Positions 16,815-51,920 of a stretch of 64,000 nucleotides of DNA are shown piece after piece. Made by a program: the position numbers and the translations under genes. The stretch covers positions 12,516-76,515 of IMG/VR virus record IMGVR_UViG_3300006092_000059. One strand, written 5' to 3'. Positions within the stretch are counted from its first letter, which is position 1; the number at the start of each line of letters is the position of its first letter. The stretch is from a virus. Taxonomy: Duplodnaviria > Heunggongvirae > Uroviricota > Caudoviricetes. A model generated the notes under the pieces. It did not search any database, was not told the origin of the DNA, and was given only the letters and a program-made list of their open reading frames with translations.

Positions 16815-17115
16815 TATGATATTCTTCCTTTAATTTTTCTTGTAATTCAAATAAAAATTTCCACTTCTCTTGATCTTTAATTTTATGTCGTTTAAATTCC
16901 CACAGTTGATGTTCTTCTGGAGTCATTAATATTATATTCTCTTTTTTAAGTCTGTATGAAGGATACAGTCCTTTTGGTAGTATATGAGAAAATTGCCAGT
17001 GCCATTGAGAATGCCCTTTTCCATGTAAAGGTAGTCCACTAATCTCAGATTTATGTTCACGTTCTTCCCAAATTATACTAAATAAATGCGCTTGATTTTT
17101 TATGTTATCCTTCAT
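16792..17115 (-). CDS. hypothetical protein, possible HNH-like nuclease
   Basis: His-rich core HGKGHSQWHWQFSHILPKG. Weak. Confidence 0.25.
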   Translation of the reverse strand: MKDNIKNQAHLFSIIWEEREHKSEISGLPLHGKGHSQWHWQFSHILPKGLYPSYRLKKENIILMTPEEHQLWEFKRHKIKDQEKWKFLFELQEKLKEEYHNGRSTRN

Positions 17116-17533
17116 TTTGTCTAAATATTACAAGCATAGATGGAAAAGGAGCAGAATTTTTACTCTTTCCAAATTTCAATCTACCCTTAATAAATCTTAT
17201 TTCTTGCTGTCCATAAATATATTCATGAAAAGCTATTGTATCAGTTCTTGCAGGTAGTAAAGCAACTACTACAGCTCCTTTTTGAGCTTCTTCATATGCT
17301 TTCTTTATCCATAATTTTGATTGATTATATGGAGGATTCATCCAACATATATCTTTAGACCAGTCTTGAACTAGTCCATTTTTCTTAACATCAAAGAATT
17401 TCTCACATTTGTTTGTATTAATATCTGCACAAACATCTAATGTAAATTTAAATTCTTCATTTAAGATTTCAAATAACCATTGAGGAGTTTCCCAAGTGTT
17501 ATTTTCACTACTAAACATTAATTCTGTATTCAC
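17105..17533 (-). CDS. dam: phage Dam-like DNA N6-adenine methyltransferase
   Basis: ETPQWLFE ... DVCAD ... WMNPPY (the NPPY catalytic motif). Small Dam_MT architecture. Confidence 0.6.
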   Translation of the reverse strand: MNTELMFSSENNTWETPQWLFEILNEEFKFTLDVCADINTNKCEKFFDVKKNGLVQDWSKDICWMNPPYNQSKLWIKKAYEEAQKGAVVVALLPARTDTIAFHEYIYGQQEIRFIKGRLKFGKSKNSAPFPSMLVIFRQNEG

Positions 17534-17759: not shown

Positions 17760-18110
17760 TCAATTAAGGTTGCCTTTGTATTTCTCTATTAGTTTTTCAA
17801 TATGCTGAAGGTAATAATTAACAAAATTATCATGTCCTTCTGGATCTTGTTTCCAGTTTAAGTACATTACTGCACGCAGCCTTTTGGAAGGGCTTATAGT
17901 GTTAATTTCATCAACCTTTAGATTTTTTATTAAATCCGCTTCATCATTAGTGAAATTTTCTTCCTTGATAGCTACATAAGCTAGCTTACCTTGCAGATGG
18001 AATAAAGTACCTGCTTTCTCTGGAGTTAACTCCTGTGTTCCCAACACTATTTTAAGAGTAGAATCTTTTCTTGTGTTTATCCCTTCTACTGTTGCTGGAA
18101 TCACTATCAT
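17760..18110 (-). CDS. hypothetical protein
   Basis: 116-aa ORF. Confidence 0.35.
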   Translation of the reverse strand: MIVIPATVEGINTRKDSTLKIVLGTQELTPEKAGTLFHLQGKLAYVAIKEENFTNDEADLIKNLKVDEINTISPSKRLRAVMYLNWKQDPEGHDNFVNYYLQHIEKLIEKYKGNLN

Positions 18111-18433
18111 CTATTGTCCCCAGAGCCTTGTAAGACTCCTCTTAATCTTCTATCTTCAAGTTTTTTTATATTTGCATCAGCAATACTGTCTAGAGAAATT
18201 CCTAAGTCTTGAGCTGTAGCGGCTACATACCATAGTACATCACCCAATTCACTAGCAATTCCTTGATTAAGTTCTGGAGTAAACACCCCATTGTTATCAC
18301 GTAATACTTTCTTTATCTTCCCTAGAACTTCTCCTGCTTCATTAGCAAGACCAAGTGATGGATAAATAATAGCATTACCTGCTCCATATACTGCTGTTTT
18401 TAATGCTTTTTCTTGATATTCCTTAAAATCCAT
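18107..18433 (-). CDS. mazG: MazG nucleotide pyrophosphohydrolase
   Basis: LANEAGEVLGKIKK ... ASELGDVLWYV ... ANIKKLEDR is a canonical MazG single-domain signature. Confidence 0.7.
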   Translation of the reverse strand: MDFKEYQEKALKTAVYGAGNAIIYPSLGLANEAGEVLGKIKKVLRDNNGVFTPELNQGIASELGDVLWYVAATAQDLGISLDSIADANIKKLEDRRLRGVLQGSGDNR

Positions 18434-19132: not shown

Positions 19133-20809
19133 TTAAACTCCACAGACACCACCTTTATTGGTGATATCACATACATCATGAAACTGTTCCTTAAATTCTT
19201 GCCCCTCATGCTTTTTAGCTTCATAGTAATCAACTGATGTCAATGGTTGTCCACCTCTTGCTCCATCTGGATAACATGTAAAGCCTCTAAGTCTTGGTGC
19301 ATATTTTGCTAACACTCCAGCAAATTCAAGTACTTTAGTATCATTATTCAATTCGGTTCCCCATTTAGGAAGATTTATAGTACTACTAATAGACATATCT
19401 ACGTAGTCTTGTATATCAGCCTGAAAAGCTATTCTCTTTTCATAATTACTAGCCAGATCTAAAGCTGATTCAACTTCTTCAGGTTTTATTCCAAAGTCTT
19501 GAATTAGTATTTTAGCTGTACCATCAATTACATATTGATAATGCCATTCTTTTTGGTTTCGTAAGTATCTTCTCTTATATGCTATTGCAAATAAGGGTTC
19601 AATACCTGTTGTTGTACCTGCCATAATTCCAATAGTTCCAGTAGGTGCTATTGCCCTCACCTTAATTGGTCTAGATATTCCGAGTTTATCTGCAAGCTCA
19701 TTTGCTGCAGCTCTGGAAGTGTCTCTATATATCTCTAGCCATTGGTGTAATTCAGGAACCACTTCATATTTATAGCCTCTTTTTAACAACCACTCATGGA
19801 TGCCCATAAGCCCCAAACCCAATCTTCTATTCTTTTCTCTTACTTTATAGATTTTATCATATGGCAGTTGTGCCACTAATGTTCCACATAATAAGAAATA
19901 AGTAGAAAGTCTGACTACTTCCTTAAATCTTTCAATAGTATCAATATTTGCCATATTAATACTACCAAGATTACATACATCACTATCATCTTCACTTGTC
20001 ACCTCTGTACAAGCATTCCTAAGAGTCTCATTCTCATCTTTCCCAAAGTTGAATGAAAATCCTGGCTCTCCTGTTTTAAGAGCTTGTCTGCAATTTTCCA
20101 CAAAAGTAACTGGAATGTTACCCGTTTTCAATGCTTCTAGGAAGGCATTATCATAATTCAATGATATATTAGTCATGTCAAGAGGAGCTGGGAAGTTAAA
20201 GTCTTTCTGCTTCAGATATCCTATTGTTAATAGGTTCTCATTTTCATCATATCCACCGTTTACTGGCATACTAAACCAGTCTTTACAGTGCAGAAATTCA
20301 TTAACATCACCATGCAGCCAATTCAGAGATGCATAAATTGCACTTCTCCTACTGCCACCTTGCATCACTTCCCTACCTATTTCATTGAGCATTCTCATCT
20401 TTGAAATAGGGCCAGAGGCTATACCTCCTGTCTTAGAAATAGGTGCACCCTTTCTTCTATATCTACTATAATCATTACCAATACCTCCACCTGTCATTAA
20501 ACAGGATTCTGCTTTCCAAGATAAATTAGCCCAATCCTCTCTGGAGTCTTCTTCAGATCTCAATAGGTAACAGTTATTGAAGAACTTGTTAAGTCTCCCA
20601 GCATAGTAGAGGTATCTACCTCCAGCTATAAATTCCATGTTGGAATGGATATTAACAAGTTCTTCTTTATCTGTTGAGCTTAAATTATCTCTACATACAT
20701 CTTCAATAAGTGTTTTACTTAACTCTGCCCAAGTCTGGGCTCCTTCATGTGCATATTTGTGTTTAAAAATACTTTCAGAAAAATCTGTTCTAAATTCTGA
20801 TTTTCTCAT
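19133..20809 (-). CDS. ribonucleotide reductase catalytic subunit (possibly class II / B12-dependent; no small subunit in the window)
   Basis: Active-site motifs RNACTEV (N-x-C-x-E thiyl-radical site) and CNLGSINM. C-terminal Cys pair ...CDITNKGGVCGV. Confidence 0.85.
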   Translation of the reverse strand: MRKSEFRTDFSESIFKHKYAHEGAQTWAELSKTLIEDVCRDNLSSTDKEELVNIHSNMEFIAGGRYLYYAGRLNKFFNNCYLLRSEEDSREDWANLSWKAESCLMTGGGIGNDYSRYRRKGAPISKTGGIASGPISKMRMLNEIGREVMQGGSRRSAIYASLNWLHGDVNEFLHCKDWFSMPVNGGYDENENLLTIGYLKQKDFNFPAPLDMTNISLNYDNAFLEALKTGNIPVTFVENCRQALKTGEPGFSFNFGKDENETLRNACTEVTSEDDSDVCNLGSINMANIDTIERFKEVVRLSTYFLLCGTLVAQLPYDKIYKVREKNRRLGLGLMGIHEWLLKRGYKYEVVPELHQWLEIYRDTSRAAANELADKLGISRPIKVRAIAPTGTIGIMAGTTTGIEPLFAIAYKRRYLRNQKEWHYQYVIDGTAKILIQDFGIKPEEVESALDLASNYEKRIAFQADIQDYVDMSISSTINLPKWGTELNNDTKVLEFAGVLAKYAPRLRGFTCYPDGARGGQPLTSVDYYEAKKHEGQEFKEQFHDVCDITNKGGVCGV

Positions 20810-24305: not shown

Positions 24306-25982
24306 TTAATACAAACTATCTAGAATTCCATTACTATAAGCAAATTTCTTATCTCCATCAAATTCAATGTTATTTGCGATAACATCTTCTTTCTTGGTAG
24401 CTTCTGCTATTTGCTCTTTTCTATGTCTAATATAACCAATTAAATAATTAGCTACATCTTTTCCTGTAGTATCTTCGAAATCATAATTTCCAAAGTAATC
24501 AGAAAAACCATGTAGAATATCTTCTAATGAAGGTTTTATTTTACGACTAATAATTTCTTTTGTATATCTTTCTGCAAAAGTAACAATTCCTACACAAATA
24601 AACAACCAATTAGATATTTTTGTGAAATTAAAAGTTGGAGTATGTATTCTAAATTCTAAGGTACGATTTGCACTGAATATTAAAGAATTAAAATTTACAA
24701 GATAGTATCTTGTAGGTATGCCCCATTTTTGCCCACCAAGAGGGTGAATAAGAGAGGTCATATTATAAGAGTCATTCATTTCTGGAACTTTCCCATCAGT
24801 TAAAAACTCAAATATTTTATTAAAATTCTTTCTTACATCATTTGAAAATTCGTGCTTAGTATTGTATATCTTTTTGTACAAAGAGTTAGTCATTATTCCT
24901 ATATTAGGAAGTCTTTGATTGTATCTCTTCTGTTTTCTTAAATATTTTACTTCATCTGATTTATATAAAGGAAATATAGAATAAATTTCATCTTGGATAG
25001 TTTGCATTATTATCCAATATGCTAGAATTGTAAGTTCATCATATTTTATATTACCAATATGTATATGCATTGAACATGTAGTATCAAACTCACATTTACT
25101 GTTGAGTTCACCACATATTCTTTTAATAGCTTGTAATCCTTTGTCCCCTTGCATAGGAACTGTTGTATATTCATAAGGCTCTATACCAGAAGCTCTTCTT
25201 AAACTACCATCTTTTAAAGGAACTAATCCTAAAGGCCCTAAAAGCTTTTGTGGAACAGTACCATTACAAGACTCTAGCTCAATACCAAATGTTTTTCCAA
25301 ACAAAAGTTTGCTAAGTTCTGATGTACGCTGATTTGATGGATACACTGTTTTATCATACATATCTTTGATAGTACGAAATGAAGGATTTCCTGCTGATGC
25401 ACTATAATCAAATGGTAGATTTTTATATCTTATAACTCTGGGAGTTACTATACTTTTTAATTCATCTTTATCAAGATTACTTTTTTTGTAGTAGAGGTCA
25501 TTCCATTTACATGGAATATATCCCATTGCTAAAGCTATTTTTTCATTCAGACAGGCTGTTGTTTGGGAAGTATGATATCTTTCAACTGTTTCTACAACTT
25601 CTTCAGTTCTTTTAAAGAAAGCTCTATTTCCTTTAGTGTCAATAAATCCTTCTATAAGATCTTTATTTTGTTGTAATTCTTCTATTAATTCATATTTACC
25701 TGTAGTAAAATTTAAACCAATCTTACCACTTGATAATCTATACCATTCTCCATCAGAAGCATCATCAGAATACCCTATCCAGAAACAGGTTACGCCTTTT
25801 TCATGATATTCTTTATGATTCTTATAATAGATACATTTACTTCTTGGTACAACTTTTCCTTCAACTGTTTTTACCTGTTTTTCCTGAGTAATTTCCATAC
25901 CTTTCTTTTTTTTAGAAGACAATTGCCGTTTCGGAGTTAACTGGATTTTGGCTTTTTTGCTCTTCTTTTGTAATGTGCTCAT
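24306..25982 (-). CDS. amidoligase (COG2170 / YbdK / GCS2-like carboxylate-amine ligase) with a Lys-rich N-terminal tail
   Basis: KTFGIELESCNG matches the YbdK TLGIELE substrate/Mg site. CSMHIHIGN matches YbdK GQHVHVGC. The first 28 codons (KKSKKAKIQ ... KKKKG) overlap the GATase gene by 70 nt; an alternative start is at 25898. Confidence 0.55.
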   Translation of the reverse strand: MSTLQKKSKKAKIQLTPKRQLSSKKKKGMEITQEKQVKTVEGKVVPRSKCIYYKNHKEYHEKGVTCFWIGYSDDASDGEWYRLSSGKIGLNFTTGKYELIEELQQNKDLIEGFIDTKGNRAFFKRTEEVVETVERYHTSQTTACLNEKIALAMGYIPCKWNDLYYKKSNLDKDELKSIVTPRVIRYKNLPFDYSASAGNPSFRTIKDMYDKTVYPSNQRTSELSKLLFGKTFGIELESCNGTVPQKLLGPLGLVPLKDGSLRRASGIEPYEYTTVPMQGDKGLQAIKRICGELNSKCEFDTTCSMHIHIGNIKYDELTILAYWIIMQTIQDEIYSIFPLYKSDEVKYLRKQKRYNQRLPNIGIMTNSLYKKIYNTKHEFSNDVRKNFNKIFEFLTDGKVPEMNDSYNMTSLIHPLGGQKWGIPTRYYLVNFNSLIFSANRTLEFRIHTPTFNFTKISNWLFICVGIVTFAERYTKEIISRKIKPSLEDILHGFSDYFGNYDFEDTTGKDVANYLIGYIRHRKEQIAEATKKEDVIANNIEFDGDKKFAYSNGILDSLY

Positions 25983-27654
25983 CTAGATATAACCAGGCTT
26001 CATCAAGCCATTTTACTAATTTTTTTCTTAAACTTTCTGTAACTGGAAGAATTTCACTAGTTTCAGGATCTTTACTAAAATCCTTATCAGCTAATGCTTC
26101 AGAAGCTTCATTTACTGTATTCATTGCAGCTATATAAACATTTAACATATCTACATCAGAATCAGTAATAGCACTATGCATTACTTCTGCATTTTCTTCT
26201 TCGTCTTCTGTATTATCTGTAAGTTCTAGAGTATTCTGTGATGGTTTAGTATAAGTACATTTCTTAAAGAAACCAGTAGAGAATTCATAAACTTTACCCT
26301 GATTAAATAAAGGAGTAAATTTACCTGTAATATAAGCATCAACACTTCCTCCAATAGTATTATAACCACCTTCTCTTAGGTTGTCAAATAATAAGGTTCT
26401 AGCACTGAATTTTCTTTTAGTAGCAGGATCAAAATTCCAAGAATGTTTAGTTCCTATTTTTCCATCTAATTTACCTTCAGAATATAATTTACAAATATCT
26501 TTTAAATCTTCTTCAGAATTTAATAACCAGCCATTCCAGAAATGATACACTTTACCTGTACCAGAATAATTTTTACTTGAAGGAGCATTTCCATTCTCAT
26601 CTAATAAATAACTAACACCTTCTTTTAGTTTCTGACCAAGTATATGTCCATTTTTATGATATCTACCTTTAACAAACACTACTCTATCATTACCAAAAGG
26701 ATTAAAGAATGGCTCATCTTCAATTAGAAAATCCCCATTATTGTCTCTACGGGTGATTTGATCAGCCTTTTTAACCAACTTTTCTGGGTATCCGATGAAG
26801 ACTTCACTAGCTCTTCTCCTGTTACTGCCGCTAGAAGTTGTAGAACTCCCACTACTGGAACTGCTCGTAGTAGTTCCCTTGCTCTCTCGATTAAATTGTT
26901 TCTTTAATGTTGAAATTTGTCCATCACTTATAATATGGATTTTATTAGGTTCAAAAGCTTTTATACAACCTTCTTTATCATCATCATCACAAATTGCCAT
27001 TAATGATTCTTTAATAGATGAAATATAAACTGCTTTTTCTCCTCTTTTTTTCCAATAAAATAAAGGTCTTTCACCAGTAGAGTCTTCACCTATACTAGAT
27101 TTACCTCTAAATACATACAGTTTATTCTCATCAGTAAAACTCCATAAAAGAGCCGCATAACCTTCATAATCATTAAGTACATTTATATTAGTTTCAGTTG
27201 CTCTACTATCTACTAAGATATTTAAAAGCTCAATACTGTCAACATTATATTTATACTTACTGCCATATTTAGTTCTTAATTCTTCTCTGTTTCTGATAAT
27301 ACCATTATGTGCACCTACAGCATATGGAACTACATTTTTTAATCCTACTTTTTTTCCTTCTTTATGATTTTCTTCTGTATAAAATCCAAATGGGTGAGCA
27401 TTATCTTCAGTATGACTTCCTACTGTAGACTTTCTTGTATGACCTATTACAGTAAAATATTTTTTGATTGGTTTAAGTGAAGTTGCTTCAATAAAATTGA
27501 AAACATTAGCCTTAGCTCCTACCCCTTTTTTTAATAAACCATCCCAGTAAATACCACAACTATCATCACCTCTTCCGAGATTGTACATCCATAAAATTTT
27601 TAATTTGTCAGGATCAGGTGCTGACACACCATTATAACCTACTAATCCGCACAT
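25912..27654 (-). CDS. class II (Ntn) glutamine amidotransferase domain protein with a Ser/Thr-rich linker and an unassigned C-terminal domain
   Basis: N-terminus MCGLVGYNG has the catalytic Cys at position 2, as in PurF/AsnB/GlmS-type amidotransferases. It has an internal SSSSSGSSTTSSGS low-complexity linker and no PP-loop SGGxDS. Confidence 0.7.
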   Translation of the reverse strand: MCGLVGYNGVSAPDPDKLKILWMYNLGRGDDSCGIYWDGLLKKGVGAKANVFNFIEATSLKPIKKYFTVIGHTRKSTVGSHTEDNAHPFGFYTEENHKEGKKVGLKNVVPYAVGAHNGIIRNREELRTKYGSKYKYNVDSIELLNILVDSRATETNINVLNDYEGYAALLWSFTDENKLYVFRGKSSIGEDSTGERPLFYWKKRGEKAVYISSIKESLMAICDDDDKEGCIKAFEPNKIHIISDGQISTLKKQFNRESKGTTTSSSSSGSSTTSSGSNRRRASEVFIGYPEKLVKKADQITRRDNNGDFLIEDEPFFNPFGNDRVVFVKGRYHKNGHILGQKLKEGVSYLLDENGNAPSSKNYSGTGKVYHFWNGWLLNSEEDLKDICKLYSEGKLDGKIGTKHSWNFDPATKRKFSARTLLFDNLREGGYNTIGGSVDAYITGKFTPLFNQGKVYEFSTGFFKKCTYTKPSQNTLELTDNTEDEEENAEVMHSAITDSDVDMLNVYIAAMNTVNEASEALADKDFSKDPETSEILPVTESLRKKLVKWLDEAWLYLDEHITKEEQKSQNPVNSETAIVF

Positions 27655-27657: not shown

Positions 27658-28473
27658 TTAATTTTTTTCTTTTAATGCTATTATTTTTGGAAGTATTTCC
27701 AAGTATTTTTGTTTTAAATAACCACTCATCCATCCAGCTGAGTTAGCTTCTAATAAAGCCCATTTAGGATTTTTTCTGTGTTTGTCATAAGCATTTGTAT
27801 TGCCTTGTAATTTAATATCAAAGCAACAAATATCCATACCTATAACCTTAATAGCTTTCTGACAATCTTCTATAATATCTAACCAATTATCTGGATGCTC
27901 AAAAGCTTCATTTTTCTTTCTGTAATTATCTATATGTACTTCATGGATCCAAATAGAATTTTTATCATTTGGTTTCCAATCTCCATCATCTTTAGCTCTT
28001 ACACGCATCTTTCTTAATCCTGCAATATAACCAAAGTCTTTAGATATATAAATTCTTACTTCTTTTGCATAACCTAAATATTCTTCAAATATATAGGCTT
28101 CACAATTATGCTCTTCAATAAACTTTTCAAAGGCATTAAAATCATCAAGTTTATAAACTCCTAATGATTGTGAAGATGTTCTTCTTTTAGCTATGATAGG
28201 AAAATCCATTTCTGCTACCATAGTAGTAAGTTTCTCAGGATTATCACTCCATCTCCATTCTGAATGCTGTACACCTGCTTTATCAAATGCTTCTTTTGTC
28301 AATTTTTTATCTACACAGGTTTCTATTGCCTTTATAGGATTAATTTCAAAATCACATTTATAAGGAGTACACGAACCAAATCTTATACATCCTTTTCTAG
28401 ATGATTTAAATTGATTCTTTACATAGTCATAACTCTCATGCGTTGACGAGAATATTATTACTGGGTTGCTCAT
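27658..28473 (-). CDS. ATP-grasp ligase (RimK / glutathione-synthetase-like)
   Basis: FPIIAKRRTSSQSLGVYKL ... EAYIFEEYLGYAKEVRIYIS matches the ATP-grasp central domain pattern. Confidence 0.55.
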   Translation of the reverse strand: MSNPVIIFSSTHESYDYVKNQFKSSRKGCIRFGSCTPYKCDFEINPIKAIETCVDKKLTKEAFDKAGVQHSEWRWSDNPEKLTTMVAEMDFPIIAKRRTSSQSLGVYKLDDFNAFEKFIEEHNCEAYIFEEYLGYAKEVRIYISKDFGYIAGLRKMRVRAKDDGDWKPNDKNSIWIHEVHIDNYRKKNEAFEHPDNWLDIIEDCQKAIKVIGMDICCFDIKLQGNTNAYDKHRKNPKWALLEANSAGWMSGYLKQKYLEILPKIIALKEKN

Positions 28474-29086
28474 TTTCTTTTTTAATATTTAAATGTTTCT
28501 TTAATTCTGTAAATAGAGAATCTCTACCTACTTTGTATAAATTTCTGGAGAAAGTAATTAACTTATAAGTACCTTCATATCCCATTGCACCTTTTCTATA
28601 GGTTCTTTCTAATTCTTTAAATTGTGCTTTTTCATAAGCATCAAGATTATTACTATTAGTAGTATCTACTGCTATTAAACCAGTATAACCACTCTTAATT
28701 GCTAAGAATAATGCACAATATAATGTTATTATGTAAGAAATAGATTCAGCATTATGATAAAAACTAGATGTACCAAAATTTCCATAAGCTGCTGTAATTA
28801 TACCTTTTCCACAACAATTGGGAAAGCAACTAAGTGTAAATCTACCAAACTCTCTAGTTTTATTATCTTCTGTATCTATAAAAAGACTAACTATTGAGTT
28901 GATATAAGTTTCACCATTACCAAATTTAGCTAATGTGCTAGTGCCACCATCTTCAGCTGTAAAGGGATTAATTGTAGCTGTTAGCTTTTTACCTGTTATT
29001 TTATTTATTTCTGTTAAAATTTCTGCAAAAAAAGGTACAACACTTTCTGTTAAATGTGTTCCTGCTGTTTTTGTAAGTGTTACCAT
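28436..29086 (-). CDS. hypothetical protein (Gly/Thr-rich, Cys cluster CFPNCCGKG)
   Basis: 216-aa ORF inside the enzymatic cluster. No motif recognised. Confidence 0.4.
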   Translation of the reverse strand: MVTLTKTAGTHLTESVVPFFAEILTEINKITGKKLTATINPFTAEDGGTSTLAKFGNGETYINSIVSLFIDTEDNKTREFGRFTLSCFPNCCGKGIITAAYGNFGTSSFYHNAESISYIITLYCALFLAIKSGYTGLIAVDTTNSNNLDAYEKAQFKELERTYRKGAMGYEGTYKLITFSRNLYKVGRDSLFTELKKHLNIKKENEQPSNNILVNA

Positions 29087-29790
29087 GCTATAGTATAATT
29101 ATTATTGGCTAATAATATCTCATTTACTTTTGAAAAGTGTTTACATCCATAATAAGATCCTCTTGCATTATATAATTCAGTAGCAGGATGTCCTGCTTCA
29201 AGAATAAAATTAGTATGAGAATTAATTAAATGCTTATAAGATTTAGCATGTTTTCCCCATAAACAATAAATTATTCCTGTATGATATAAGCTTAATTCTC
29301 TAATAATAAATGATGTAAAAGGTCTCCACAGATCTAAATGTGCATCAGCATTCCATTCTTCTGTAGTAAGTGCTGAATTTAACAATAATACACCTTGTTT
29401 GGCCCATCTTGTTAAATCAGTATCCATATTAATTAATTCACCATTAAAAACATCATTTTCAAGTTCATTTCTTATAACTTTTAAACTTTCAGGTACATGT
29501 AAATCATTTTCACCCTTTTGGTATGAAAAAGCTAATCCATGACCTTCAGGTTTACCATTAACTATATGATAATATGGAGATTGTCCTAATATTACTACTC
29601 TTACATCATCCCAAGGAGTATATTTAAATGCATTAAACATATCTACTTGATTTGGAAGTATTCTTTTTTCTGCTTTTCTTTTAGTTAAATAAGATAAAAT
29701 TTTTTGACCTTCATCTAGTTCTAGAAATGGAGCTATTTTTTCAAGCCATTTCTTTTCTATATAAGGTTCTAATTTTTCTTTGTAGTTCAT
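29080..29790 (-). CDS. uracil-DNA glycosylase family 1 (UNG) fold protein with substituted catalytic residues
   Basis: Extended colinear similarity to UNG: GQSPYY (UNG GQDPYH), GLAFSY (GLCFSV), WAKQGVLLLNSALT (identical to the UNG WAKQGVLLLNAVLT core), HPATELY (HPSPLS), GCKHFSKVNEIL (GCRHFSKTNELL), IAW (IDW). The water-activating Asp is Ser and the following His is Tyr. Confidence 0.75.
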   Translation of the reverse strand: MNYKEKLEPYIEKKWLEKIAPFLELDEGQKILSYLTKRKAEKRILPNQVDMFNAFKYTPWDDVRVVILGQSPYYHIVNGKPEGHGLAFSYQKGENDLHVPESLKVIRNELENDVFNGELINMDTDLTRWAKQGVLLLNSALTTEEWNADAHLDLWRPFTSFIIRELSLYHTGIIYCLWGKHAKSYKHLINSHTNFILEAGHPATELYNARGSYYGCKHFSKVNEILLANNNYTIAW

Positions 29791-30053
29791 ATAAATTCTT
29801 CTACTGCTTTATCAGTTGCACTGTTTAGAGCATCTACTCTTCTACAATACACAGGATTTGAATTAAATGTTTTACTACCTTCCTTGTTACTTAAAGTATA
29901 CCAATACATTCCTGGTGTTATTCTAGATTCAAATACACTCAAATTAACTCCTTTATCAGCAATTAACCAAGTTCTTAATACTGAGTAAAATAAACCAGTT
30001 TTTATTTCAGGGAGTTTGAATCCTTTTTCTAATGCTGATTTTAATACACTCAT
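29787..30053 (-). CDS. hypothetical protein
   Basis: 88-aa ORF. Confidence 0.35.
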   Translation of the reverse strand: MSVLKSALEKGFKLPEIKTGLFYSVLRTWLIADKGVNLSVFESRITPGMYWYTLSNKEGSKTFNSNPVYCRRVDALNSATDKAVEEFI

Positions 30054-30054
30054 A

Positions 30055-30423
30055 TTAATATTTTTTTCTGTAATCTGAATAGTCTCCTGATTCTACTACT
30101 GTTCCGTGTCCATTACAATAATATAACCAAGCTTCTCTTGTCACACCATCATCTCCATCTATTTTAGTAAGTTCTCTTTTATAGAATCTTGGATGCCCTT
30201 CAAGACCATCCAATCTACTAAGAGTAACATCATCTACTTCATAAACTTCAACTGTAATTTTACTTACTTCTTGTGTTCTTGAAACATATGGAATTCCAGC
30301 TGCATGCATTACCATTTTATCAGCTGTTTTACCAGTTGTAATTAATGGGCTACTTGTTAACAATCTGTTATTTCCATACCCTTTTCTTAATGTACCATAC
30401 ACTGATACTAAATGTTTACTCAT
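30055..30423 (-). CDS. gamma-glutamyl cyclotransferase (AIG2/GGCT-like)
   Basis: N-terminal VSVYGTLRKGYGNNRLL matches the GGCT YGSL ... G motif. 122 aa. Confidence 0.55.
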   Translation of the reverse strand: MSKHLVSVYGTLRKGYGNNRLLTSSPLITTGKTADKMVMHAAGIPYVSRTQEVSKITVEVYEVDDVTLSRLDGLEGHPRFYKRELTKIDGDDGVTREAWLYYCNGHGTVVESGDYSDYRKKY

Positions 30424-31436
30424 TTTATCTTTTTGTTTATTTCTTCTTTTAGTATTTTGTATCCTTCTTCTACTCCAAAATAAGCTATTACATCAGCAGG
30501 ATCTTTACATCCTGTTTCTTCATAAATTTTATTTGGAATATTTATCCATTTGTATCCTCTATGATTAAGTTTTTTATTTGCAGATTTTCCTGTTTCATCA
30601 CTATCCCAAAATAGGAAAATGTTTTCATATTTTTCTTTAAAAACACTATCATATTTAATTAAAATAGCAGATTCTGCTTCATTTTGTGTATTAATAACAT
30701 CTGAATGAATCTTAGATAAAACAATTCTATCTTTTCTGCTTTTAGTTATTATTAGATTTTTAGATTTTGGATTTTGAATCTTATATAGCCCTTCAATATG
30801 TTTTTGACTTATATTACCAATCCATGTAAATTCCTTATTCAAGGGAGTATAGATCTTTTTCTTATCTATAATACCATCTAATAAAAATCTGTAGGCAAAT
30901 TTTAATTCTTTTCTAAGTGGAAAAGTTTTTAAACTGCCTTCTTCTCCAATCCATAATTGGCTAATAGAATAGATTTCATTTTCTACTAAATCTTTCTCAG
31001 AAATTCCATATTGTTGCCAATATTCTAATTCATCTTTAGTAAAATTTTTACTTCTAAATCTTATTTCTATAGGTTTTCTTGTACTTATTTTTGGAAGCTT
31101 AATAGTCTCTCCTAAAATAATAGTTTTCTTTTCTGTAAGATCTATGTTAAAATCATTACAAATTTTAGTACAACTATCATTATAGTTTAAACCAAATAAA
31201 CTACTTACAAATTTAAAACAATCTCCACCATCATCAGCTCCAAAATCATAATAGTACCAATCATTGGTTTTTTTATTAAACCCTATTGAAAAGCTTGGTT
31301 TTTTATCTTTTCTAAATGGACTTAAATATAATTTTTTCTCCTCAAAAGGAAAATAAAACTGAAAAATTCTGTAACTGTCTATTGCTCCTAAGATACGCTT
31401 ATGAAGTGGTAAATCATATTCACTTGTTGAATACAT
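30420..31436 (-). CDS. Toprim-domain primase-like protein
   Basis: NIFLFWDSDETGKSA resembles the Toprim DxD ... G motif of phage primases. Weak. Confidence 0.3.
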   Translation of the reverse strand: MYSTSEYDLPLHKRILGAIDSYRIFQFYFPFEEKKLYLSPFRKDKKPSFSIGFNKKTNDWYYYDFGADDGGDCFKFVSSLFGLNYNDSCTKICNDFNIDLTEKKTIILGETIKLPKISTRKPIEIRFRSKNFTKDELEYWQQYGISEKDLVENEIYSISQLWIGEEGSLKTFPLRKELKFAYRFLLDGIIDKKKIYTPLNKEFTWIGNISQKHIEGLYKIQNPKSKNLIITKSRKDRIVLSKIHSDVINTQNEAESAILIKYDSVFKEKYENIFLFWDSDETGKSANKKLNHRGYKWINIPNKIYEETGCKDPADVIAYFGVEEGYKILKEEINKKIK

Positions 31437-31497: not shown

Positions 31498-32082
31498 TTA
31501 GAATACTTCACTGGTACTTTCAACTTCTTTTTTTGGAAGATGTTTCATTGTACCTGCTGGAATTTTTTCTTTAACTGCTTCATCGCTTGTTACAACTTTG
31601 AATGACAATTTATAGCCAGGAAATTCACTACCTGGTTTTTCATACTCTTCACCATTGAAGTTCATCCATATATAAGGAAGTTCAGCATTAGTAACTACAG
31701 CTGAGAAAGCAGTTACAAACTGCTCTAAAGTTTCTACATTCTTTGTAGCCTCATCTACTTGCTGTTTAACACCAAAAGCATTAGCTAATGGGTTAATTAT
31801 TTTATTCATTATTTTGCCTACTTCTACCTTATCTTCTGGAAGGAAATAAGAACTTGCAACTATACCACATTGACCATGATAAAAGTTACCACTTCCTTTT
31901 ACTTTTTCAAAAGGCTTAAAGCCTTCAGCTTTTACTGGCTCTCCATACACCTTAAAAAGGAGTTGTTTTCTACCTGTACTTGCTGTTTTTACTTCAATTG
32001 ATTCAACTTTTGCTCTGTTCCAGCCCACATAAAATTTTGGGCTTACTTTGTTATTGCCTGTGTACGCACTTGTACTAAACAT
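31498..32082 (-). CDS. hypothetical protein (possible ssDNA-binding protein; no support beyond context)
   Basis: 194-aa ORF followed by a strong terminator. Confidence 0.4.
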   Translation of the reverse strand: MFSTSAYTGNNKVSPKFYVGWNRAKVESIEVKTASTGRKQLLFKVYGEPVKAEGFKPFEKVKGSGNFYHGQCGIVASSYFLPEDKVEVGKIMNKIINPLANAFGVKQQVDEATKNVETLEQFVTAFSAVVTNAELPYIWMNFNGEEYEKPGSEFPGYKLSFKVVTSDEAVKEKIPAGTMKHLPKKEVESTSEVF

Positions 32083-32111: not shown

Positions 32112-33029
32112 TTAAAACCTGATTGCTGGTTCTTCAGATGGAATATCTTCTATTCTAGCCTCATTTATTAGTCGGGTAGTAGTAAATGTTGTTGGTGTAG
32201 TAAAGGTCACGTCTGTTCCTGTTCTGAAGCCTCTATTTTCTCTGGCCTCCATTTGAGCTTGTAACCACTCAGGACTTCCTACTACTGTTGAAGGATCTAC
32301 TTCCTTCTTAGATTTACCTTTATCAACTACTTTTCTTAAAACTGGCTTTTCCACCTTTTTTTCATACCAAGGCTCATTTATTAAAAAGAACACATACTCT
32401 GGAAAGTCTGTATTTTTCTCTAAATAATGACTTATATGAAATTTAAGCTTACCTTTGTCTGGATTTTGGGTTTCAGGATTAAATGTATTATACAGATTTC
32501 TCCATTCTACATTATTTTTAACTTTGCCTTCTTTAATAGCATGACCAATAGTATCATCATCTTCTTTAAAGATGTAATATTTCTTAGCTTTTCTATCAAT
32601 AGCAAAACCAACCTTATCCTTATCAGTAATGCCTATAAGAGTTCTCAAAGCTGAAGATAAATAAATTACATCTTCGCCATCTTTATATAGCTCAATTATG
32701 TATTCATTTCCATATCTATCTATATCCTCAATTACTTTTTTTCTCTTTTCAAGGCTTCTTACTTTTTGTTCTGGATTAACTGTTAAGTCAATTTCCATAC
32801 AAAATACTACAATTTCTGTTCCAGGAACTGCATTAGGATTATTGTTATTGGAACCAGTAACACGCATTCTTAATAGACTACGCTCACCTCCATAACTTAT
32901 ATTCATAATTCTTCCCATGCATCCTAAGTACATATCTCCATAACCCTGTACATCCAGAACTACGGTAGCTTCTTTATTTAAATATTTTTCTTCAAGGAAC
33001 TTTAAGTTTCCCGCTTTTCCTCTACTCAT
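32112..33029 (-). CDS. hypothetical protein
   Basis: 305-aa ORF. Confidence 0.4.
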   Translation of the reverse strand: MSRGKAGNLKFLEEKYLNKEATVVLDVQGYGDMYLGCMGRIMNISYGGERSLLRMRVTGSNNNNPNAVPGTEIVVFCMEIDLTVNPEQKVRSLEKRKKVIEDIDRYGNEYIIELYKDGEDVIYLSSALRTLIGITDKDKVGFAIDRKAKKYYIFKEDDDTIGHAIKEGKVKNNVEWRNLYNTFNPETQNPDKGKLKFHISHYLEKNTDFPEYVFFLINEPWYEKKVEKPVLRKVVDKGKSKKEVDPSTVVGSPEWLQAQMEARENRGFRTGTDVTFTTPTTFTTTRLINEARIEDIPSEEPAIRF

Positions 33030-33039: not shown

Positions 33040-33738
33040 TTATCCGTTATAATAACTATTAACTCTTTCTACTACATATCCTAAATCATTTGGTATTTCC
33101 ATTTCTGTAAACATACCTATTGGTGATTTGGCAGTATTGTTTCCATCTGTATTTGTAGTGAAAAAATATCTTGTTTTTTTACTTAAAACATTAGTTTCAG
33201 TACGTCCAAATAAAACAACTGTAAATAATCCTTCCAATGTAATATATTGGTCAATCATTTTGCCTGCTGTTCTAATTTTTCTTGCTCCATCAGCTTCAGC
33301 TTCATCGTGATAAGTAAATACCACATTTAAATCTGATCTTAAGGTTGATGCAACTTTAATTGGTTTAAAAGCTGCTTCTGCTATTTCATTAAACTTTTCG
33401 TATCCTTTTTCTTTGACCTTAGCCATGAATAGAAAACTTTGTAAATAACCTGCATCATCCACAATAACATTCTTTATATCAGGATATTTATCACTGATTT
33501 GCTGCAATGCAGCACATATTACTACTGGATCTGAAGTCATTATTTGTCTTCCTCCTTCAGAAATTTTTCCTATAGGATAGAGTTTATTAGCACCTTTTAC
33601 TGGAAGAGGTTTGCTACTAACATTTATAATTACTGTTTCTTTGGGATCTAATCCCTTAATTCCTATTTCCTCATTTGGGAAAATAGAGGTAGATTTACCA
33701 CTACCTGCTTTTGCTACAACTGCTATTAAGTTAGCCAA
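33040..33738 (-). CDS. P-loop NTPase (RecA/Sak4-like recombination ATPase or a DNA/nucleotide kinase)
   Basis: Walker A AVVAKAGSGKST at residues 7-18. ~230 aa, the size of Sak4-like proteins and of 5-hmdU DNA kinases. Confidence 0.45.
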   Translation of the reverse strand: MANLIAVVAKAGSGKSTSIFPNEEIGIKGLDPKETVIINVSSKPLPVKGANKLYPIGKISEGGRQIMTSDPVVICAALQQISDKYPDIKNVIVDDAGYLQSFLFMAKVKEKGYEKFNEIAEAAFKPIKVASTLRSDLNVVFTYHDEAEADGARKIRTAGKMIDQYITLEGLFTVVLFGRTETNVLSKKTRYFFTTNTDGNNTAKSPIGMFTEMEIPNDLGYVVERVNSYYNG

Positions 33739-34105: not shown

Positions 34106-35242
34106 TTAAACTACGCCTTTCTTCAATAAAAAATCATCATACTCACCTTTTGACTTGAGGACAGGCATCTCCTCAAAGTGCATTGTTGTACCATCAAAAT
34201 ACATTGGAACTTTTACATTGCTTTTACCTAAGCGATTCTTAAGAATTGTAATAGACCTATAATTGTCTTTTAATCTTGTAATATCGTATCCTAAATGTTG
34301 TTTAATTCCATATCTATATGGTGCAAACACGCCAAGTATAATAAATGAATCCCTTTGGACAATTTTGTTGTCTCCAAGACCATCTAAGCTTGGTTCCACT
34401 TTACTTTCTATAGTATCACCTGAAAGAGTATATTGCATTTTTTCACTATCAGAAGCTTGTTGTTGCACATTTACAACAGTCCACTTCCAATGTTTAGTAA
34501 TTTGAAGACGTGCATAATCCATACTCCATTTACTCATAGAATTATGTTTACTACCACCTGATTCTTCAGAAAGTAAGCTAATATGGTCTACAATAACTAT
34601 GACAAATGTATCATCATTAGGTTTGTATCCCTTATAAACTTTTTCTTTAGTAGAGGATTTTCCTAGTGAATCACTAGATTGAAATTCTCTTTCTTCCCAG
34701 ATGTGTGTACCTAATTTTTCTGAATAATTTCTACACCACTTATAAAGACCTGTAGGATTGTGTACACTATCTATTAGTTCCACATCCTGCATCAAAATCT
34801 CTAATTCTGATTTGCAATCTTCAATTTTACTAATTAGTTTTTCATCTATTGGATTTTCATAGTAACTTTTCAGATCTAATGAACTTATAGAGATATTATA
34901 TTTCTCATTAAGCATCCAACAAATTAAACTATCAATAAACTCTTCTTTAGATTCCTCTAATAGAAAGTATATTATTTTTAATTTTATTCCACTCTCAGGA
35001 TGATTTCTCACGAATCTAAGAGGAGTCAGGAAAAATAAATTTTTAGTAAATAGGGTTTTTCCAACACCACTATTTGCCGTAACTGTAATATTAATACCTT
35101 TAATTATTCCAGGTATTACTGTACTAAGTTTAGGAAATGATTCATAGAATGGAATAATAGGATACTTTCCTTCATCTCTGAGTCTTTTATTTTCTTTTAT
35201 AGCGTGTATACGCTGTTGAATTAAAGAGTCTCCTGATTCCAT
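34106..35242 (-). CDS. DnaB-like (SF4) replicative helicase
   Basis: Walker A TANSGVGKT, Walker B-like VIVDHISLL, and NVQQQ in the motif H3 position. Confidence 0.5.
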   Translation of the reverse strand: MESGDSLIQQRIHAIKENKRLRDEGKYPIIPFYESFPKLSTVIPGIIKGINITVTANSGVGKTLFTKNLFFLTPLRFVRNHPESGIKLKIIYFLLEESKEEFIDSLICWMLNEKYNISISSLDLKSYYENPIDEKLISKIEDCKSELEILMQDVELIDSVHNPTGLYKWCRNYSEKLGTHIWEEREFQSSDSLGKSSTKEKVYKGYKPNDDTFVIVIVDHISLLSEESGGSKHNSMSKWSMDYARLQITKHWKWTVVNVQQQASDSEKMQYTLSGDTIESKVEPSLDGLGDNKIVQRDSFIILGVFAPYRYGIKQHLGYDITRLKDNYRSITILKNRLGKSNVKVPMYFDGTTMHFEEMPVLKSKGEYDDFLLKKGVV

Positions 35243-39938: not shown

Positions 39939-41831
39939 CTACTTTTGCCAACACTTAGTTATAGTTGTGTCTACCTCCATTTTAACTTTAGAGACATATT
40001 TATTTCCAACTTCTATCATAAGTGAAGCCATTTCCTTAGAAAATTCCTGTGCTAAGTCTTCTCTGACTTCTACATCAATAGCATCATGGACAGTGCATAT
40101 TAAATATGCTACATCTTCATTCCACTTCTTGTTATATCTTTTAATAAGATTCCTAACTTCTATTAATGCTTCTTTACATATATCAGCACCACTACCCTGA
40201 ATTGGTGAATTACCACCATTTCTTTCAGTTTGTCCTTCTATAGTAAGTATGCGTTTCCAAGTTTCCTTTTCACCATATTTCACAGTTTTTCTAAGGTTGA
40301 TGGCAATATCCATATCTGGATACCATCTTCTTCTTTTACAAGGAAAGAATGTTACAGAATATTTGTTTTTTTTAGCAAAAACACCTTGATACTTTAACCA
40401 TTCATTCAGTTTAGGAAATGAATGTGCGTATATTTCAAAAAGCTCATTAGCTTCTTCAAGGCTGATTCCTAATGTATCTGCAAGCTTTGGAGGCCCCATT
40501 CCATAAGGTTTACCAAAATTAATGGTTTTAGCCTTATTTCTTAGTTCCTTATCAGCTTTAGTGATAGTACGTTTAAACATCATACTACCAGCATAACAAT
40601 GTAAGTCTTCACCTCTATTTAAAACATCAATGAATCCCTCTTCATTACTGGCATCAGCCATTAGTCTCAATTCTTGTCCTGAGTAATCAATACTTACCCA
40701 AGCATAACCTTCTCTTGCCTCAAAACAATTCCTAAATGTGTTAGATGCAGGAATATTTTGAAGATTAGGAGCATTATCTTCTTTACTACCACTACTTACT
40801 CTCCCTGTATTTAATACTTGCCAAAATGAAGTATGAACTCTATTAGTAGTAGTATTAATGGATCTTAAAAATCCTATACCATAAGTAGAAATAATTTTTG
40901 CTTTTTCTCTATATTCTTGTAATAGAGCACAAAATGGATGTCTTTTAGCTATTTTAGACAGTTCTCTGTCATTAGTAGAATCAATTTCAAATCCTAGTGC
41001 TTTTAATACTTCGTATATTTGAGAAGGAGAAGCATAATTAATTTTTATATCCCTTTCAGTATAACCAAATAAATTCCCCTGTTGCCCTTTAGAGTGCCAT
41101 TTTGACAGCTTTGATTCAGATTCTACAATCTTATCCAATTGATTTGTAATTGTGTCTAATTCAGCTCTAAAATGCGTAGTATTGTGAATCCATTTGTCTT
41201 TATTAAGATACATTCCATTATACTCTATATCAGCTATTGCCTTAACAACTTCATTTTCAAGATTTACACAATAAGTGAGATCTAACTCTTTAGCCTTAGT
41301 TTCTTGTATTTCTTTAATTTTATGAAGATAAGTAACATCTAATGCAGCGTATTCTATTTGTTTGTCAGTATATGGAATATCTCCAACTTTATGAAAATCT
41401 CCTCTGGTTGTTTTATCCAAATCAACCTGAAGATATCTCTGAGCTAGATCTTTTAATCCATATCCATATTTTTCATATCCACAATACAATACACATTCAG
41501 CGAGCATTGTATCATAAATATTCTCAAGTACTATTCCTGCTTTTTTAAGAAATTTATAATCAAATTTGGAATTGTGTAGAATACATTTTTTTGTTTCTAA
41601 CAAATTCTTGAAGTTCAAGATATCTATACTTCTAACATCAATTACAAACTGATTTTTATTATCTCCTATTTGAAGACATATAATTTTCTTACTATGGCAA
41701 TCTTTTCCCTGAGTTTCTGTATCCACAGCTATTTCATCATGATTTGAGAAATATCTGAGGCATTCCTCTACAGATGAGGAAGAATATATAGAACTATCTA
41801 TAAATCCTGTCTTTCCAATAAAATAAATCAA
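39939..41831 (-). CDS. family A DNA polymerase with a 3'-5' proofreading exonuclease domain
   Basis: Exo motifs VDTETQG and YAALDVTYL. Polymerase motif A DYSGQELRLMA, motif B KTINFGKPYGMG and motif C VHDAIDVEV. Confidence 0.9.
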   Translation of the reverse strand: MIYFIGKTGFIDSSIYSSSSVEECLRYFSNHDEIAVDTETQGKDCHSKKIICLQIGDNKNQFVIDVRSIDILNFKNLLETKKCILHNSKFDYKFLKKAGIVLENIYDTMLAECVLYCGYEKYGYGLKDLAQRYLQVDLDKTTRGDFHKVGDIPYTDKQIEYAALDVTYLHKIKEIQETKAKELDLTYCVNLENEVVKAIADIEYNGMYLNKDKWIHNTTHFRAELDTITNQLDKIVESESKLSKWHSKGQQGNLFGYTERDIKINYASPSQIYEVLKALGFEIDSTNDRELSKIAKRHPFCALLQEYREKAKIISTYGIGFLRSINTTTNRVHTSFWQVLNTGRVSSGSKEDNAPNLQNIPASNTFRNCFEAREGYAWVSIDYSGQELRLMADASNEEGFIDVLNRGEDLHCYAGSMMFKRTITKADKELRNKAKTINFGKPYGMGPPKLADTLGISLEEANELFEIYAHSFPKLNEWLKYQGVFAKKNKYSVTFFPCKRRRWYPDMDIAINLRKTVKYGEKETWKRILTIEGQTERNGGNSPIQGSGADICKEALIEVRNLIKRYNKKWNEDVAYLICTVHDAIDVEVREDLAQEFSKEMASLMIEVGNKYVSKVKMEVDTTITKCWQK

Positions 41832-42930: not shown

Positions 42931-43749
42931 TCATTTGTAGACTGTTGCAACAGGTACTGGAAGAGATTCTAAGTTATATTTTTTGATAAGAGAAGCAGCA
43001 GCGGAATAATCAGAATTGTTAATAGTACTAATTATTATTTCTGCTAAGTTACTCCCATTTTCAATTTCCCCATGTTCCTTTACAAATTCTACAGCTCTTA
43101 GAGTGTTATCCCATACCCATTTAATAAGAGTGTCATCAAAAATCCAGAAATTACTCAAAACTCTATACTCAAATCTGTTTTGTTTGAGTTTTTCTCTGTA
43201 ATCTCCAGCTTTTCCATAAAGGTCTCTTCTATATAAGTCTGTATCCATTAAAATACTAGGAACTGCTAAGTGTAAATCAAGAGCTTTAACTACAGCTAAC
43301 ATATTTCTACCATCTATTGAATCAAATTCAAGATGTATATGCCCACCACAACTTCTTAATGTACCATCAGGAGATGGTCTTTCCATTTGCTCACCTTTTC
43401 TCCAAGCATCAAAAGATGGTTCACAACCAAATTCAGTTGCTTTAACATCTACTAGTTCTTCATAAGGAAAATGAGCAGATGCTTCTGTTCCTATATCATA
43501 AGAGTCTGGAATAATATTTTTCAGGTATTTCAAACCATAACGGATATTATTGGTGAATTCTTGCAAATCACTAGCTGGTGGTACATTGAATTCTACAGCA
43601 ACATTGTCATGTAGAAATGCAAAGCCATCCTTATCCATTGGCATTGGTTTTTCTTTTGTTCCCATTCCTACAATAGGAATAGAAGATTTGAATTTGTCTC
43701 CTTCTTTGAGAAAAAATTCTGGGTCTGTTCCAAATTTTGTTATCTTCAT
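42931..43749 (-). CDS. second amidoligase-like protein (COG2170/YbdK-like)
   Basis: N-terminus KFGTDPEFFLKEG (corresponds to GIELEF) and SCGGHIHLEFD (corresponds to the YbdK HVHVG motif). Confidence 0.45.
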   Translation of the reverse strand: MKITKFGTDPEFFLKEGDKFKSSIPIVGMGTKEKPMPMDKDGFAFLHDNVAVEFNVPPASDLQEFTNNIRYGLKYLKNIIPDSYDIGTEASAHFPYEELVDVKATEFGCEPSFDAWRKGEQMERPSPDGTLRSCGGHIHLEFDSIDGRNMLAVVKALDLHLAVPSILMDTDLYRRDLYGKAGDYREKLKQNRFEYRVLSNFWIFDDTLIKWVWDNTLRAVEFVKEHGEIENGSNLAEIIISTINNSDYSAAASLIKKYNLESLPVPVATVYK

Positions 43750-48352: not shown

Positions 48353-48445
48353 TGTTCTGTGTCATTAAATATTTTCTAGATTTACCTAGAATTAATACAT
48401 GAATTGTTTTTGTTCTCTTTAATTTAATCATAAATTCAATTTAGT

Positions 48446-48520: not shown

Positions 48521-48524
48521 TTGT

Positions 48525-51912: not shown

Positions 51913-51920
51913 CGTATTAA

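Follow-up and report, generated by a model that had tools for sequence, protein, structure and literature searches.

The UNG homolog and its active site

The 64-kb stretch of viral DNA analyzed here (64,000 nucleotides, hereafter the window; positions 12,516 to 76,515 of the IMG/VR record IMGVR_UViG_3300006092_000059, Caudoviricetes) encodes on its minus strand, at 29080..29790, a 236-residue homolog of the family-1 uracil-DNA glycosylase (UDG), UNG, that is without the catalytic Asp. A reading of the sequence alone, referred to below as the original prediction, had placed a UNG-family open reading frame (ORF) at 29080-29790, and we recovered exactly this span. The identification of the product (P0001) draws on Pfam, NCBIfam, phmmer, AlphaFold2 (AF2) and Foldseek. 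P0001 matched the Pfam UDG family (PF03167, 5.8e-11) and scored 185.9 bits with the NCBIfam ung equivalog NF003592, above the cut-off of 162, and it fell under the cut-off of four other ung models (TIGR00628, 160.9 versus 185.75, together with NF003589, NF003591 and NF003588). A phmmer search of all PDB sequences returned 44 UNG chains, headed by Coxiella Ung (3tr7, 6e-39). In these alignments P0001 is colinear with the solved UNGs, its 'vvilgqspyy' standing opposite 'VVILGQDPYH' with zero gaps at the motif, and there is a four-residue insertion after motif A. The colinearity with family-1 UDG that had been claimed at the outset, including WAKQGVLLLN, GLAFS and HPATELY, was borne out by the PDB alignments and by reading of the motifs, among which WAKQGVLLLN, GLAFS, the His of HPATELY and GCKHFSK were all confirmed. 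Records of the identical protein come from both JGI and Logan, and its DNA could be read from two SRA assemblies independent of each other.

Structural modeling, which had been suggested as a check, led to the same family. The AF2 model of P0001, built from a 60-sequence alignment, has a mean pLDDT of 97 and a pTM of 0.93; the top 50 PDB matches found for it by Foldseek are UNGs only (TM 0.8-0.92), and it superposes on solved family-1 UNGs with a TM of 0.85-0.92 and a root-mean-square deviation of about 2 Å at 30-39% identity. The predicted fold is the UDG alpha/beta fold, not helix-hairpin-helix (HhH), and the model thus supports a true family-1 UNG fold for the product of 29080-29790.

In what follows Tyr66, Phe77, Asn123, His187, Ser189, Leu191, Ser192 and Arg195 are given in E. 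coli numbering. Motif A, canonically GQDPYH, reads GQSPYY by alignment (residues G69-Y74, 29569..29586, minus strand), and the Ser71 codon, TCT, read from the DNA at 29578-29580 (minus strand), replaces the catalytic Asp (E. coli D64, human D145). The gapless alignment puts Ser71 at precisely that Asp position, and two base changes would be required to turn TCT into an Asp codon (GAY). GLAFS (residues 85-89, 29524..29538, minus strand, by alignment) holds Phe88, the invariant equivalent of Phe77, which stacks on the uracil, while WAKQGVLLLN (residues 129-138, 29377..29406, minus strand) ends in Asn138, the equivalent of the uracil-specificity residue Asn123 and invariant in the homologs examined. 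Motif B, the Leu-intercalation loop, is canonically HPSPLS and aligns with HPATELY (residues 201-207, 29170..29190, minus strand). In this loop His201, the equivalent of His187, is kept and a Leu is present (L206), Ser189 has become Ala, a Glu has been inserted and Ser192 has become Tyr; four residues past HPATELY, at Gly211, Arg195 has become Gly. Both Ser189 and Arg195, which contact the DNA during flipping, are consequently lost in P0001.

The original prediction had treated the Asp-to-Ser and His-to-Tyr replacements in motif A as a pair. Both are real in P0001, but only the former is conserved: the His-to-Tyr change is private to P0001, its relatives reading GQSPYH, GQTPYH, GGSPYS and so on, most of them with the His, and in the wider phage clade the His site varies (P, I, A or C) even where the Asp is present. 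In P0001 itself motif A is followed by a His one residue later (YYH).

An Asp-less clade under selection

Loss of the Asp extends through a clade of ten protein clusters. The nine nearest clusters are 55-69% identical to the query and all lack the Asp, so that the position is occupied by Ser in eight of the ten, by Thr in one and by Ala in one. Motif A is spelled GQSPYH, GQTPYH, GGSPYS, GQSPFH, GMSPYS or SQSPYH in the relatives and GMAPYF in P0121, the Ala variant, which was read on three contigs; two of these, from ENA and JGI, have normal synteny. Where DNA was available, the codons at the site are TCT, TCA and AGT (Ser), ACT (Thr) and GCG (Ala), compared with GAT in the sister phages. This variety points to repeated substitution among small neutral residues: the site has been swapped again and again among small uncharged residues and never back to a carboxylate.

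The clade is sharply delimited. Against 5.8 billion proteins, its members scored at least 416 bits with the clade profile and all other proteins at most 280, and in an exhaustive library of 1.84 billion representatives, in which the clade collapses into one 50%-identity cluster and the UNG family has 12,529 representatives, the corresponding values were 420 and 240 bits. In a neighbor-joining tree computed without support values it is monophyletic and nested among, or sister to, Asp-type phage UNGs, with which it has the post-motif insertion and GLAFSY in common. Megablast found zero close relatives among GenBank phages; the relatives found there by tblastn were at most 40% identical and came mostly from Crassvirales and Flavobacterium phages, and IMG/VR contained only one clade member, L016, on a contig of 129.8 kb. 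Contigs of Ser-type phages include IMGVR_UViG_3300033120_000864 (129.8 kb) and Logan SRR21686422_2795 (130.6 kb).

Which parts of the protein have been retained? Across nine aligned members 84 of 236 columns are invariant, and these include Phe88 (F77), Asn138 (N123) and His201 (H187), as well as the Pro and the Ser in the phosphate-pinching loop. Nine members have Tyr at the Tyr66 position and one has Phe, and Asn123 is invariant in all of the approximately 345 homologs aligned. Other features are conserved in the clade and rare elsewhere, namely N91V, Y93R, V128T, S135A, S189A, the Glu insertion in the Leu loop, S192Y and R195G. The loop has in effect been remodeled from HPSPLS to HPA[TS]ELY with two DNA-contact residues gone, its Ala and Glu being already present in the Asp-type sister group. 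We also considered V128T and S135A as changes covarying with Asp loss; both Ser lineages have T and A at these sites, but so do several Asp-type sequences, and the pair is not diagnostic.

Loss of a canonical catalytic residue might signify a gene in decay, or one only recently inactivated, that no longer has a selected function. We consider this scarcely credible and effectively refuted by conservation: the gene is found in ten clusters, 55-69% identical to the query, the nine that were aligned have the invariant columns described above, and the ORF is intact at every locus. The UDG-like protein is also better conserved than its neighbors, with 62% and 56% identity to its orthologs in two Ser-type relatives as compared with 46-47% for the primase, 39-44% for the exonuclease and 42-47% for the class-II glutamine amidotransferase (GATase), and across the Asp/Ser boundary its identity is 45-48%, proportionate to the divergence of the neighboring genes. 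Because it is more conserved than its neighbors and its divergence across the boundary is proportionate, the gene is under strong purifying selection, with neither decay nor a burst of change when the Asp was lost.

Recurrence of Asp loss in the wider family

The original prediction had called either of its two readings of the protein unusual for a phage, and this turned out to be an overstatement, as Asp-less UNG homologs recur in viral and metagenomic sequences. In word-indexed searches 17 of 194 homologs are without the Asp: the clade itself, P0022 and P0026, P0040 (V), P0127 (E), P0149 (G), P0153 (Q) and P0160 (G). The motif of P0022/P0026 is GLSPYF, again with Ser, in an unrelated genomic context. 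Among the 150 best UNG representatives at 50% identity (the P0199-P0338 set), a sample that is biased to phage-like sequences near the query and does not give a family-wide frequency, the Asp is absent from 25 (seven E, four N, three each of T, A, S and G, and two C). Many of these 25 have lost His187 as well, and Asn123 is invariant in the sample. Natural GQNPY variants exist (P0229, P0287 and P0288), and the ten of the 25 that we looked up were metagenomic and mostly on short contigs. A named example is the annotated UDG of Cellulophaga phage phi14:2 (g042, L009 11941-12651), which reads GKEPY (Asp to Glu) and AEDPIQ (His187 to Asp, with the Leu loop gone) and is probably not a canonical glycosylase either. 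Judging from the sequences, then, Asp loss has recurred independently, as Ser in P0022, Val in P0040, Gln in P0153, Gly in P0160 and Glu in phi14:2. Our literature searches returned zero descriptions of natural Asp-less family-1 UNGs; the closest idea is that of UdgX, compared below. What is new here is probably a pseudo-glycosylase inside a well-known family and not a new system.

The replication module

The window is AT-rich (about 29% GC) and contains one long minus-strand block encoding PolA (39939-41831), a DnaB-like helicase (34106-35242), a Sak4-like AAA_24 ATPase (33040-33738), two conserved proteins without an assigned function (31498-32082 and 32112-33029), a DnaG-type primase, ribonucleotide reductase (RNR) and a PD-(D/E)XK exonuclease, along with MazG and MazZ-type NTP pyrophosphatases, a Dam methyltransferase and seven tRNAs. 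Immediately upstream of the UDG-like gene lie an 88-residue ORF whose stop overlaps the UDG start (29787-30053), a GGACT gamma-glutamyl cyclotransferase (30055-30423) and the DnaG-type primase (30420-31436), all on the minus strand, this stretch (29787..31436) forming the edge of the replication module. The 88-residue ORF is not conserved across the clade; as a candidate Ugi-like protein it was rejected, being neither acidic nor Ugi-like.

The order helicase, AAA_24, primase, UDG is kept in all loci, with PolA in the same block, and from Cellulophaga phi14:2 through to crAss001 and FpV4 the UDG keeps its place in the replication module. In phi14:2 (Crassvirales, Steigviridae) the order is DnaB, ThyX, Sak4, primase, GGCT, ATP-grasp, COOH-NH2 ligase, GATase, amidoligase, UDG, RusA, exonuclease and RNR. 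Because this member of the Crassvirales carries the same module, its gene content marks the source of the window as a crAss-like phage, and UDG is a recognized gene of crAss-like replication and nucleotide-metabolism modules (PMC7886860).

Several other genes of the window deserve mention. A MazZ-like dATP/dGTP diphosphohydrolase N-domain (PF18909, 1e-34) is fused to an NT5C-type 5'-deoxynucleotidase (13144-13962, minus strand), a combination that could provide a route from dNTP through dNMP to the deoxynucleoside, and a separate MazG domain protein is encoded at 18107-18433 (minus strand). The RNR large-subunit ORF (19133-20809, minus strand) has only 558 residues, and the Pfam barrel domain matched it in three separate stretches; in the relative L003 a class-II-type RNR has 650 residues, and the gene in the window may have been truncated or split, or may carry an intein. 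A single large gene lies on the plus strand (514-6663), divergent from the minus-strand block, and encodes a 2049-residue protein with an N-terminal ART-PolyVal ADP-ribosyltransferase domain. On the minus strand there are also a SET-domain protein (7324-7704), two family-2 glycosyltransferases (8536-9974) and the Dam-type N6-adenine methyltransferase (17105-17533). The seven tRNA genes (Met, His, Leu-TAA, Gln, Trp, Lys and Arg-TCT) are scattered among small ORFs at 48444-60457 (minus strand), and amid them are an HNH endonuclease (51921-52394) and a plus-strand LAGLIDADG ORF (54805-55269).

The neighboring amidoligase cassette

On its other side the UDG-like gene adjoins an amidoligase cassette, likewise on the minus strand, with Amidoligase_2 (24306-25982), a class-II GATase (25912-27654) and an ATP-grasp protein (27658-28473). 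Between the ATP-grasp gene and the UDG-like gene lies an orphan ORF of 216 residues (28436..29086, minus strand) with the motif 'SCFPNCCGKGIIT', which overlaps the UDG stop by 7 nt. Only one homolog of the orphan was found among 5.8 billion proteins, and its AF2 model (pLDDT 69) matches GNAT acetyltransferases only, so we dropped it as a possible DNA partner and assigned it to the cassette, of which it is probably an acetyltransferase-like member. In the Asp-type sister phages the flanking positions hold ORFs that are not homologous to the orphan and that have CCG or NCG motifs. In the relatives L004 (14556-17089) and L013 (5464-7977) a LAGLIDADG homing-endonuclease ORF has been inserted into the amidoligase gene and divides it into two ORFs, an arrangement that could represent an intron, an intein or a split gene.

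Such a cassette occurs in many podoviruses, including phiEco32, LUZ24, PaP3 and PSA-HP1, where it typically sits amid the replication genes and is hypothesized to remodel peptidoglycan or peptides (PMC5498523). The genes flanking the UDG match the cassette of these phages and of phi14:2 component by component, as GGCT, class-II GATase, Amidoligase_2, ATP-grasp and COOH-NH2 ligase are all present in the window. The difference is that a UDG-like gene is not a listed component of the podovirus cassette and adjoins it only in the present crAss-like lineage. The COOH-NH2 ligase, of the phiEco32 type and homologous to phi14:2 g039, lies away from the cassette and adjoins NAPRTase-family and PRPP-synthetase-like genes of NAD salvage (42931-43749 and 44393-46875, both minus strand).

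Is the Ser variant linked to these ligases? The order primase, UDG, cassette, exonuclease is also found in the Asp-type sister phages L005, L006 and L008, whereas crAss001, cr111_1 and FpV4, whose UDG reads GQDPY, have a ThiF/metalloprotease module between the primase and the UDG. Because the Asp-type sisters share the synteny and the gut crAss-like phages have the ThiF module instead, the adjacency of UDG and ligases is best read as synteny of the lineage, not specific to the Ser variant. We therefore rejected a link between the Ser state and the cassette, which by its gene content and distribution appears to be a module independent of the UDG-like gene. The ThiF (E1-like) and metalloprotease modules are located at 2762-5972 of L010 (crAss001), 10596-13666 of L011 (cr111_1) and 3301-5977 of L012 (Flavobacterium phage FpV4), so that two different ATP-dependent conjugation-type modules, the amidoligase cassette and the ThiF module, occupy the corresponding stretch of one locus.

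These comparisons bear directly on one of the two readings offered in the original prediction, that of an adaptor flipping a base for the amidoligase, ATP-grasp and GATase, which would make a hypermodified pyrimidine, by analogy with the aGPT-Pplases of HhH-glycosylase fold. The UDG-like gene is indeed translationally coupled to the cassette genes. Proteins with a glycosylase fold are also known to have been recruited to hypermodify thymidine, and genes for amidoligase and GATase are found alongside the clusters concerned (PMC5889632, PMC8989533). Even so, we regard an adaptor as very improbable, and the claim was not sustained. Asp-type sisters have the same synteny, the cassette is known independently from many podoviruses, where it presumably modifies peptidoglycan or peptides (PMC5498523), the gene order in phi14:2 differs, and in the gut crAss phages the ThiF/metalloprotease module intervenes. 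The Tyr66 gate, which excludes 5-substituted pyrimidines, has been kept. Furthermore, the UNG pocket buries the base that is flipped into it and does not offer that base to a second enzyme. Among the window ORFs scanned with Pfam, the window being 64 kb of a roughly 130-kb genome, there was no match to 5-HMUDK, aGPT-Pplase, TET or dUMP hydroxymethylase, unlike the hypermodification clusters described (PMC5889632, PMC8989533). An aGPT-Pplase-type hypermodification enzyme was rejected as an identity for P0001 itself on similar grounds, the fold being alpha/beta and not HhH and HMUDK, TET and hydroxymethylase having no Pfam match in those ORFs. In short, the UNG homolog does not reveal a new DNA hypermodification pathway.

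A catalysis-independent function?

In family-1 UNGs the Asp positions and activates the water and stabilizes the oxocarbenium, and its replacement by Asn, at a cost to activity of about three orders of magnitude or more, is the classical route to a protein that binds flipped uracil with scant excision. In the phage clade the fold, the uracil pocket (Tyr, Phe and Asn) and the leaving-group His are intact and the Asp is replaced by Ser, Thr or Ala throughout; a protein of this constitution is therefore predicted to bind uracil specifically and to turn it over very little, if at all. Since the gene has been highly conserved in the replication module after Asp loss, the simplest explanation would be that selection maintains a function independent of catalysis. 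The reading that we favor, and to which we give about an even chance, is a natural UNG that binds uracil or DNA with very slow excision or none, and that has been preserved for some role other than catalysis in the replication module. To this extent the preference of the original prediction for a base-flipping reader over a glycosylase seems reasonable, given the missing Asp, the retention of Tyr66, Phe77, Asn123 and His187 and the conservation at the level of the clade.

Under the favored reading the homolog would still flip and bind uracil, or bind DNA generally, while excising extremely slowly or never, and would be a natural analog of the engineered D145N/H268N human UNG, which binds uracil-containing DNA without excision and is used as a uracil sensor (PMC4756853). 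It would have been retained because the phage needs a UNG function other than catalysis beside the primase, helicase, Sak4-like ATPase and PolA of the same block. One option is a subunit accessory to the polymerase or replisome that scans the template, as in poxvirus D4/E4; another is a non-cleaving occupant of uracil sites, by which apurinic/apyrimidinic (AP) sites and breaks at the fork would be avoided. There are precedents for a UDG at the fork: vaccinia D4 is a processivity factor whose catalytic-site mutants are reported to support replication (PMC10253040), and in the PolA enzymes of SP15-like phages the polymerase is preceded on the template by a UDG domain (bioRxiv 10.1101/2025.03.26.645540). 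It is by analogy that we infer both the lack of excision and the action with the replisome, and a D4-like role, the other reading offered in the original prediction, is plausible from the position of the gene in the replication module.

A number of points weigh against this favored reading. Inactivity is inferred from mutagenesis of other UNGs, and the monophyly of the clade comes from a tree without support values. A purely structural processivity role would not require strict retention of the uracil pocket, and an A20-like bridging partner was not identified, a homolog of A20 having been sought by Pfam scans only. In addition, His187, the larger contributor to leaving-group stabilization, is retained, so that a slow glycosylase is possible, and nine of the ten clade members keep a hydroxyl that could orient water as Asn does in families 2 and 3.

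The last two points lead to the alternative that P0001 is still a working uracil-DNA glycosylase, in which the Ser/Thr hydroxyl, or some other residue such as the clade-specific Thr143 or loop Glu205, positions the water, and His201 and the DNA phosphates give most of the catalytic power. Such an enzyme would be slower and perhaps tightly product-bound, like MUG, TDG or SMUG1. We consider this possible but clearly short of probable. It would account for the Ser or Thr in nine of ten members, for the conservation of His187, Asn123, Phe77 and Tyr66 and for the NF003592 score above cut-off. The equivalent site is Asn in UDG families 2 and 3 and Ala in family 5. Other UDG families function without an Asp at this place, and a move of the water-orienting residue to a new site has precedent there, family 4 coordinating the water by a motif-3 Asn (PMC5387724). 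On the other hand, one healthy clade member has Ala (GMAPYF), Asp-to-Asn in family 1 has the high cost given above and has been exploited for a non-excising sensor (PMC4756853), and the residues making the flipping contacts, Ser189 and Arg195, are lost. His187 is missing too from many other lineages without the Asp, a sign that catalytic constraint has been relaxed in general.

Could binding without excision protect the phage genome? As a dominant-negative shield, which is a physiological variant of the binder idea, the protein would occupy uracils in the AT-rich phage DNA and so prevent host UNG and AP endonuclease from breaking up that DNA as it replicates, a functional alternative to Ugi or p56. 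A strictly conserved uracil pocket combined with lost catalysis is what such a protein would display, and host UNG is a known hazard against which phages have to be protected (PMC3711442). Moreover, Pfam scans did not find dUTPase, ThyA, ThyX or dCMP deaminase in the window, which covers the replication and nucleotide-metabolism block, although it represents about half of a genome of roughly 130 kb, a size judged by the contigs of two relatives. We nevertheless think a shield unlikely: stoichiometric cover is costly compared with an inhibitor, the MazG and MazZ-type pyrophosphatases may sanitize dUTP, and the Leu-loop changes would weaken binding to double-stranded DNA, not strengthen it.

What would the favored reading mean for phage UNGs in general? 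In Crassvirales, which are the most abundant human-gut phages, and in their environmental relatives, UDG is routinely annotated as an enzyme of repair or of nucleotide sanitation. The loss of Asp/His in about one in six of the diverse UNG clusters nearest the clade, together with strong selection, suggests that the function for which phage UNGs are selected is at least partly non-catalytic. A tentative extension, which we would not put above a minority chance, is that UNGs of family 1 without Asp and His make up a widespread, unrecognized class, the natural 'dead UNGs' of crAss-like phages and of others, acting as uracil readers or as polymerase accessories in the replisome and constituting a bacterial-virus counterpart of poxvirus D4. 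Within that class the present clade, in which the Asp is lost and the His and pocket are kept, may be an intermediate, uracil-sensing form. If the favored reading is true, these phages would be a source of natural uracil-DNA sensor proteins, and caution would be called for over automatic annotation as 'uracil-DNA glycosylase'.

Comparison with known UNG-type systems

The homolog shares with canonical family-1 UNG the fold, the colinear alignment, Tyr66/Phe77/Asn123/His187 and the WAKQGVLLLN core, and with the UDGs of crAss-like phages its gene position. It differs from the canonical enzyme in reading GQSPY for GQDPY, and so in having no carboxylate to serve as general base and stabilize the oxocarbenium, as well as in the four-residue insertion after motif A and in HPATELY with Ser189 to Ala, the inserted Glu and Arg195 to Gly.

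Mycobacterial UdgX is another natural member of the UDG superfamily, and its output is tight binding of uracil-DNA and not turnover. It is, however, family-4-like (GEQPG), and it excises the uracil and then forms a covalent cross-link via His109 of its KRRIH R-loop. We rejected P0001 as a UdgX-type covalent binder, as the GEQPG motif and the KRRIH R-loop are absent from the alignment and the Ala variant excludes an obligatory Ser nucleophile. A more exotic variant, in which without the hydrolytic Asp some other nucleophile captures the oxocarbenium, leading to base exchange or cross-linking, is likewise disfavored by the Ala variant. The engineered D145N/H268N human UNG is like the phage protein in its loss of the Asp carboxylate and in the uracil-specific binding predicted, by analogy, to be retained by the latter; it is artificial and also without the His, whereas the phage protein keeps the His and has Ser, Thr or Ala in place of Asn.

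Poxvirus D4/E4 resembles the phage protein as a viral family-1-type UNG that is encoded among replication genes and for which a catalysis-independent role is proposed. D4 differs in keeping the catalytic Asp, in being an active glycosylase and in working with a B-family polymerase via A20, while on the phage side the polymerase is of family A. Should the favored reading prove true, the paradigm established by D4, that of a glycosylase fold serving as a component of the replisome, would be extended to bacteriophages.

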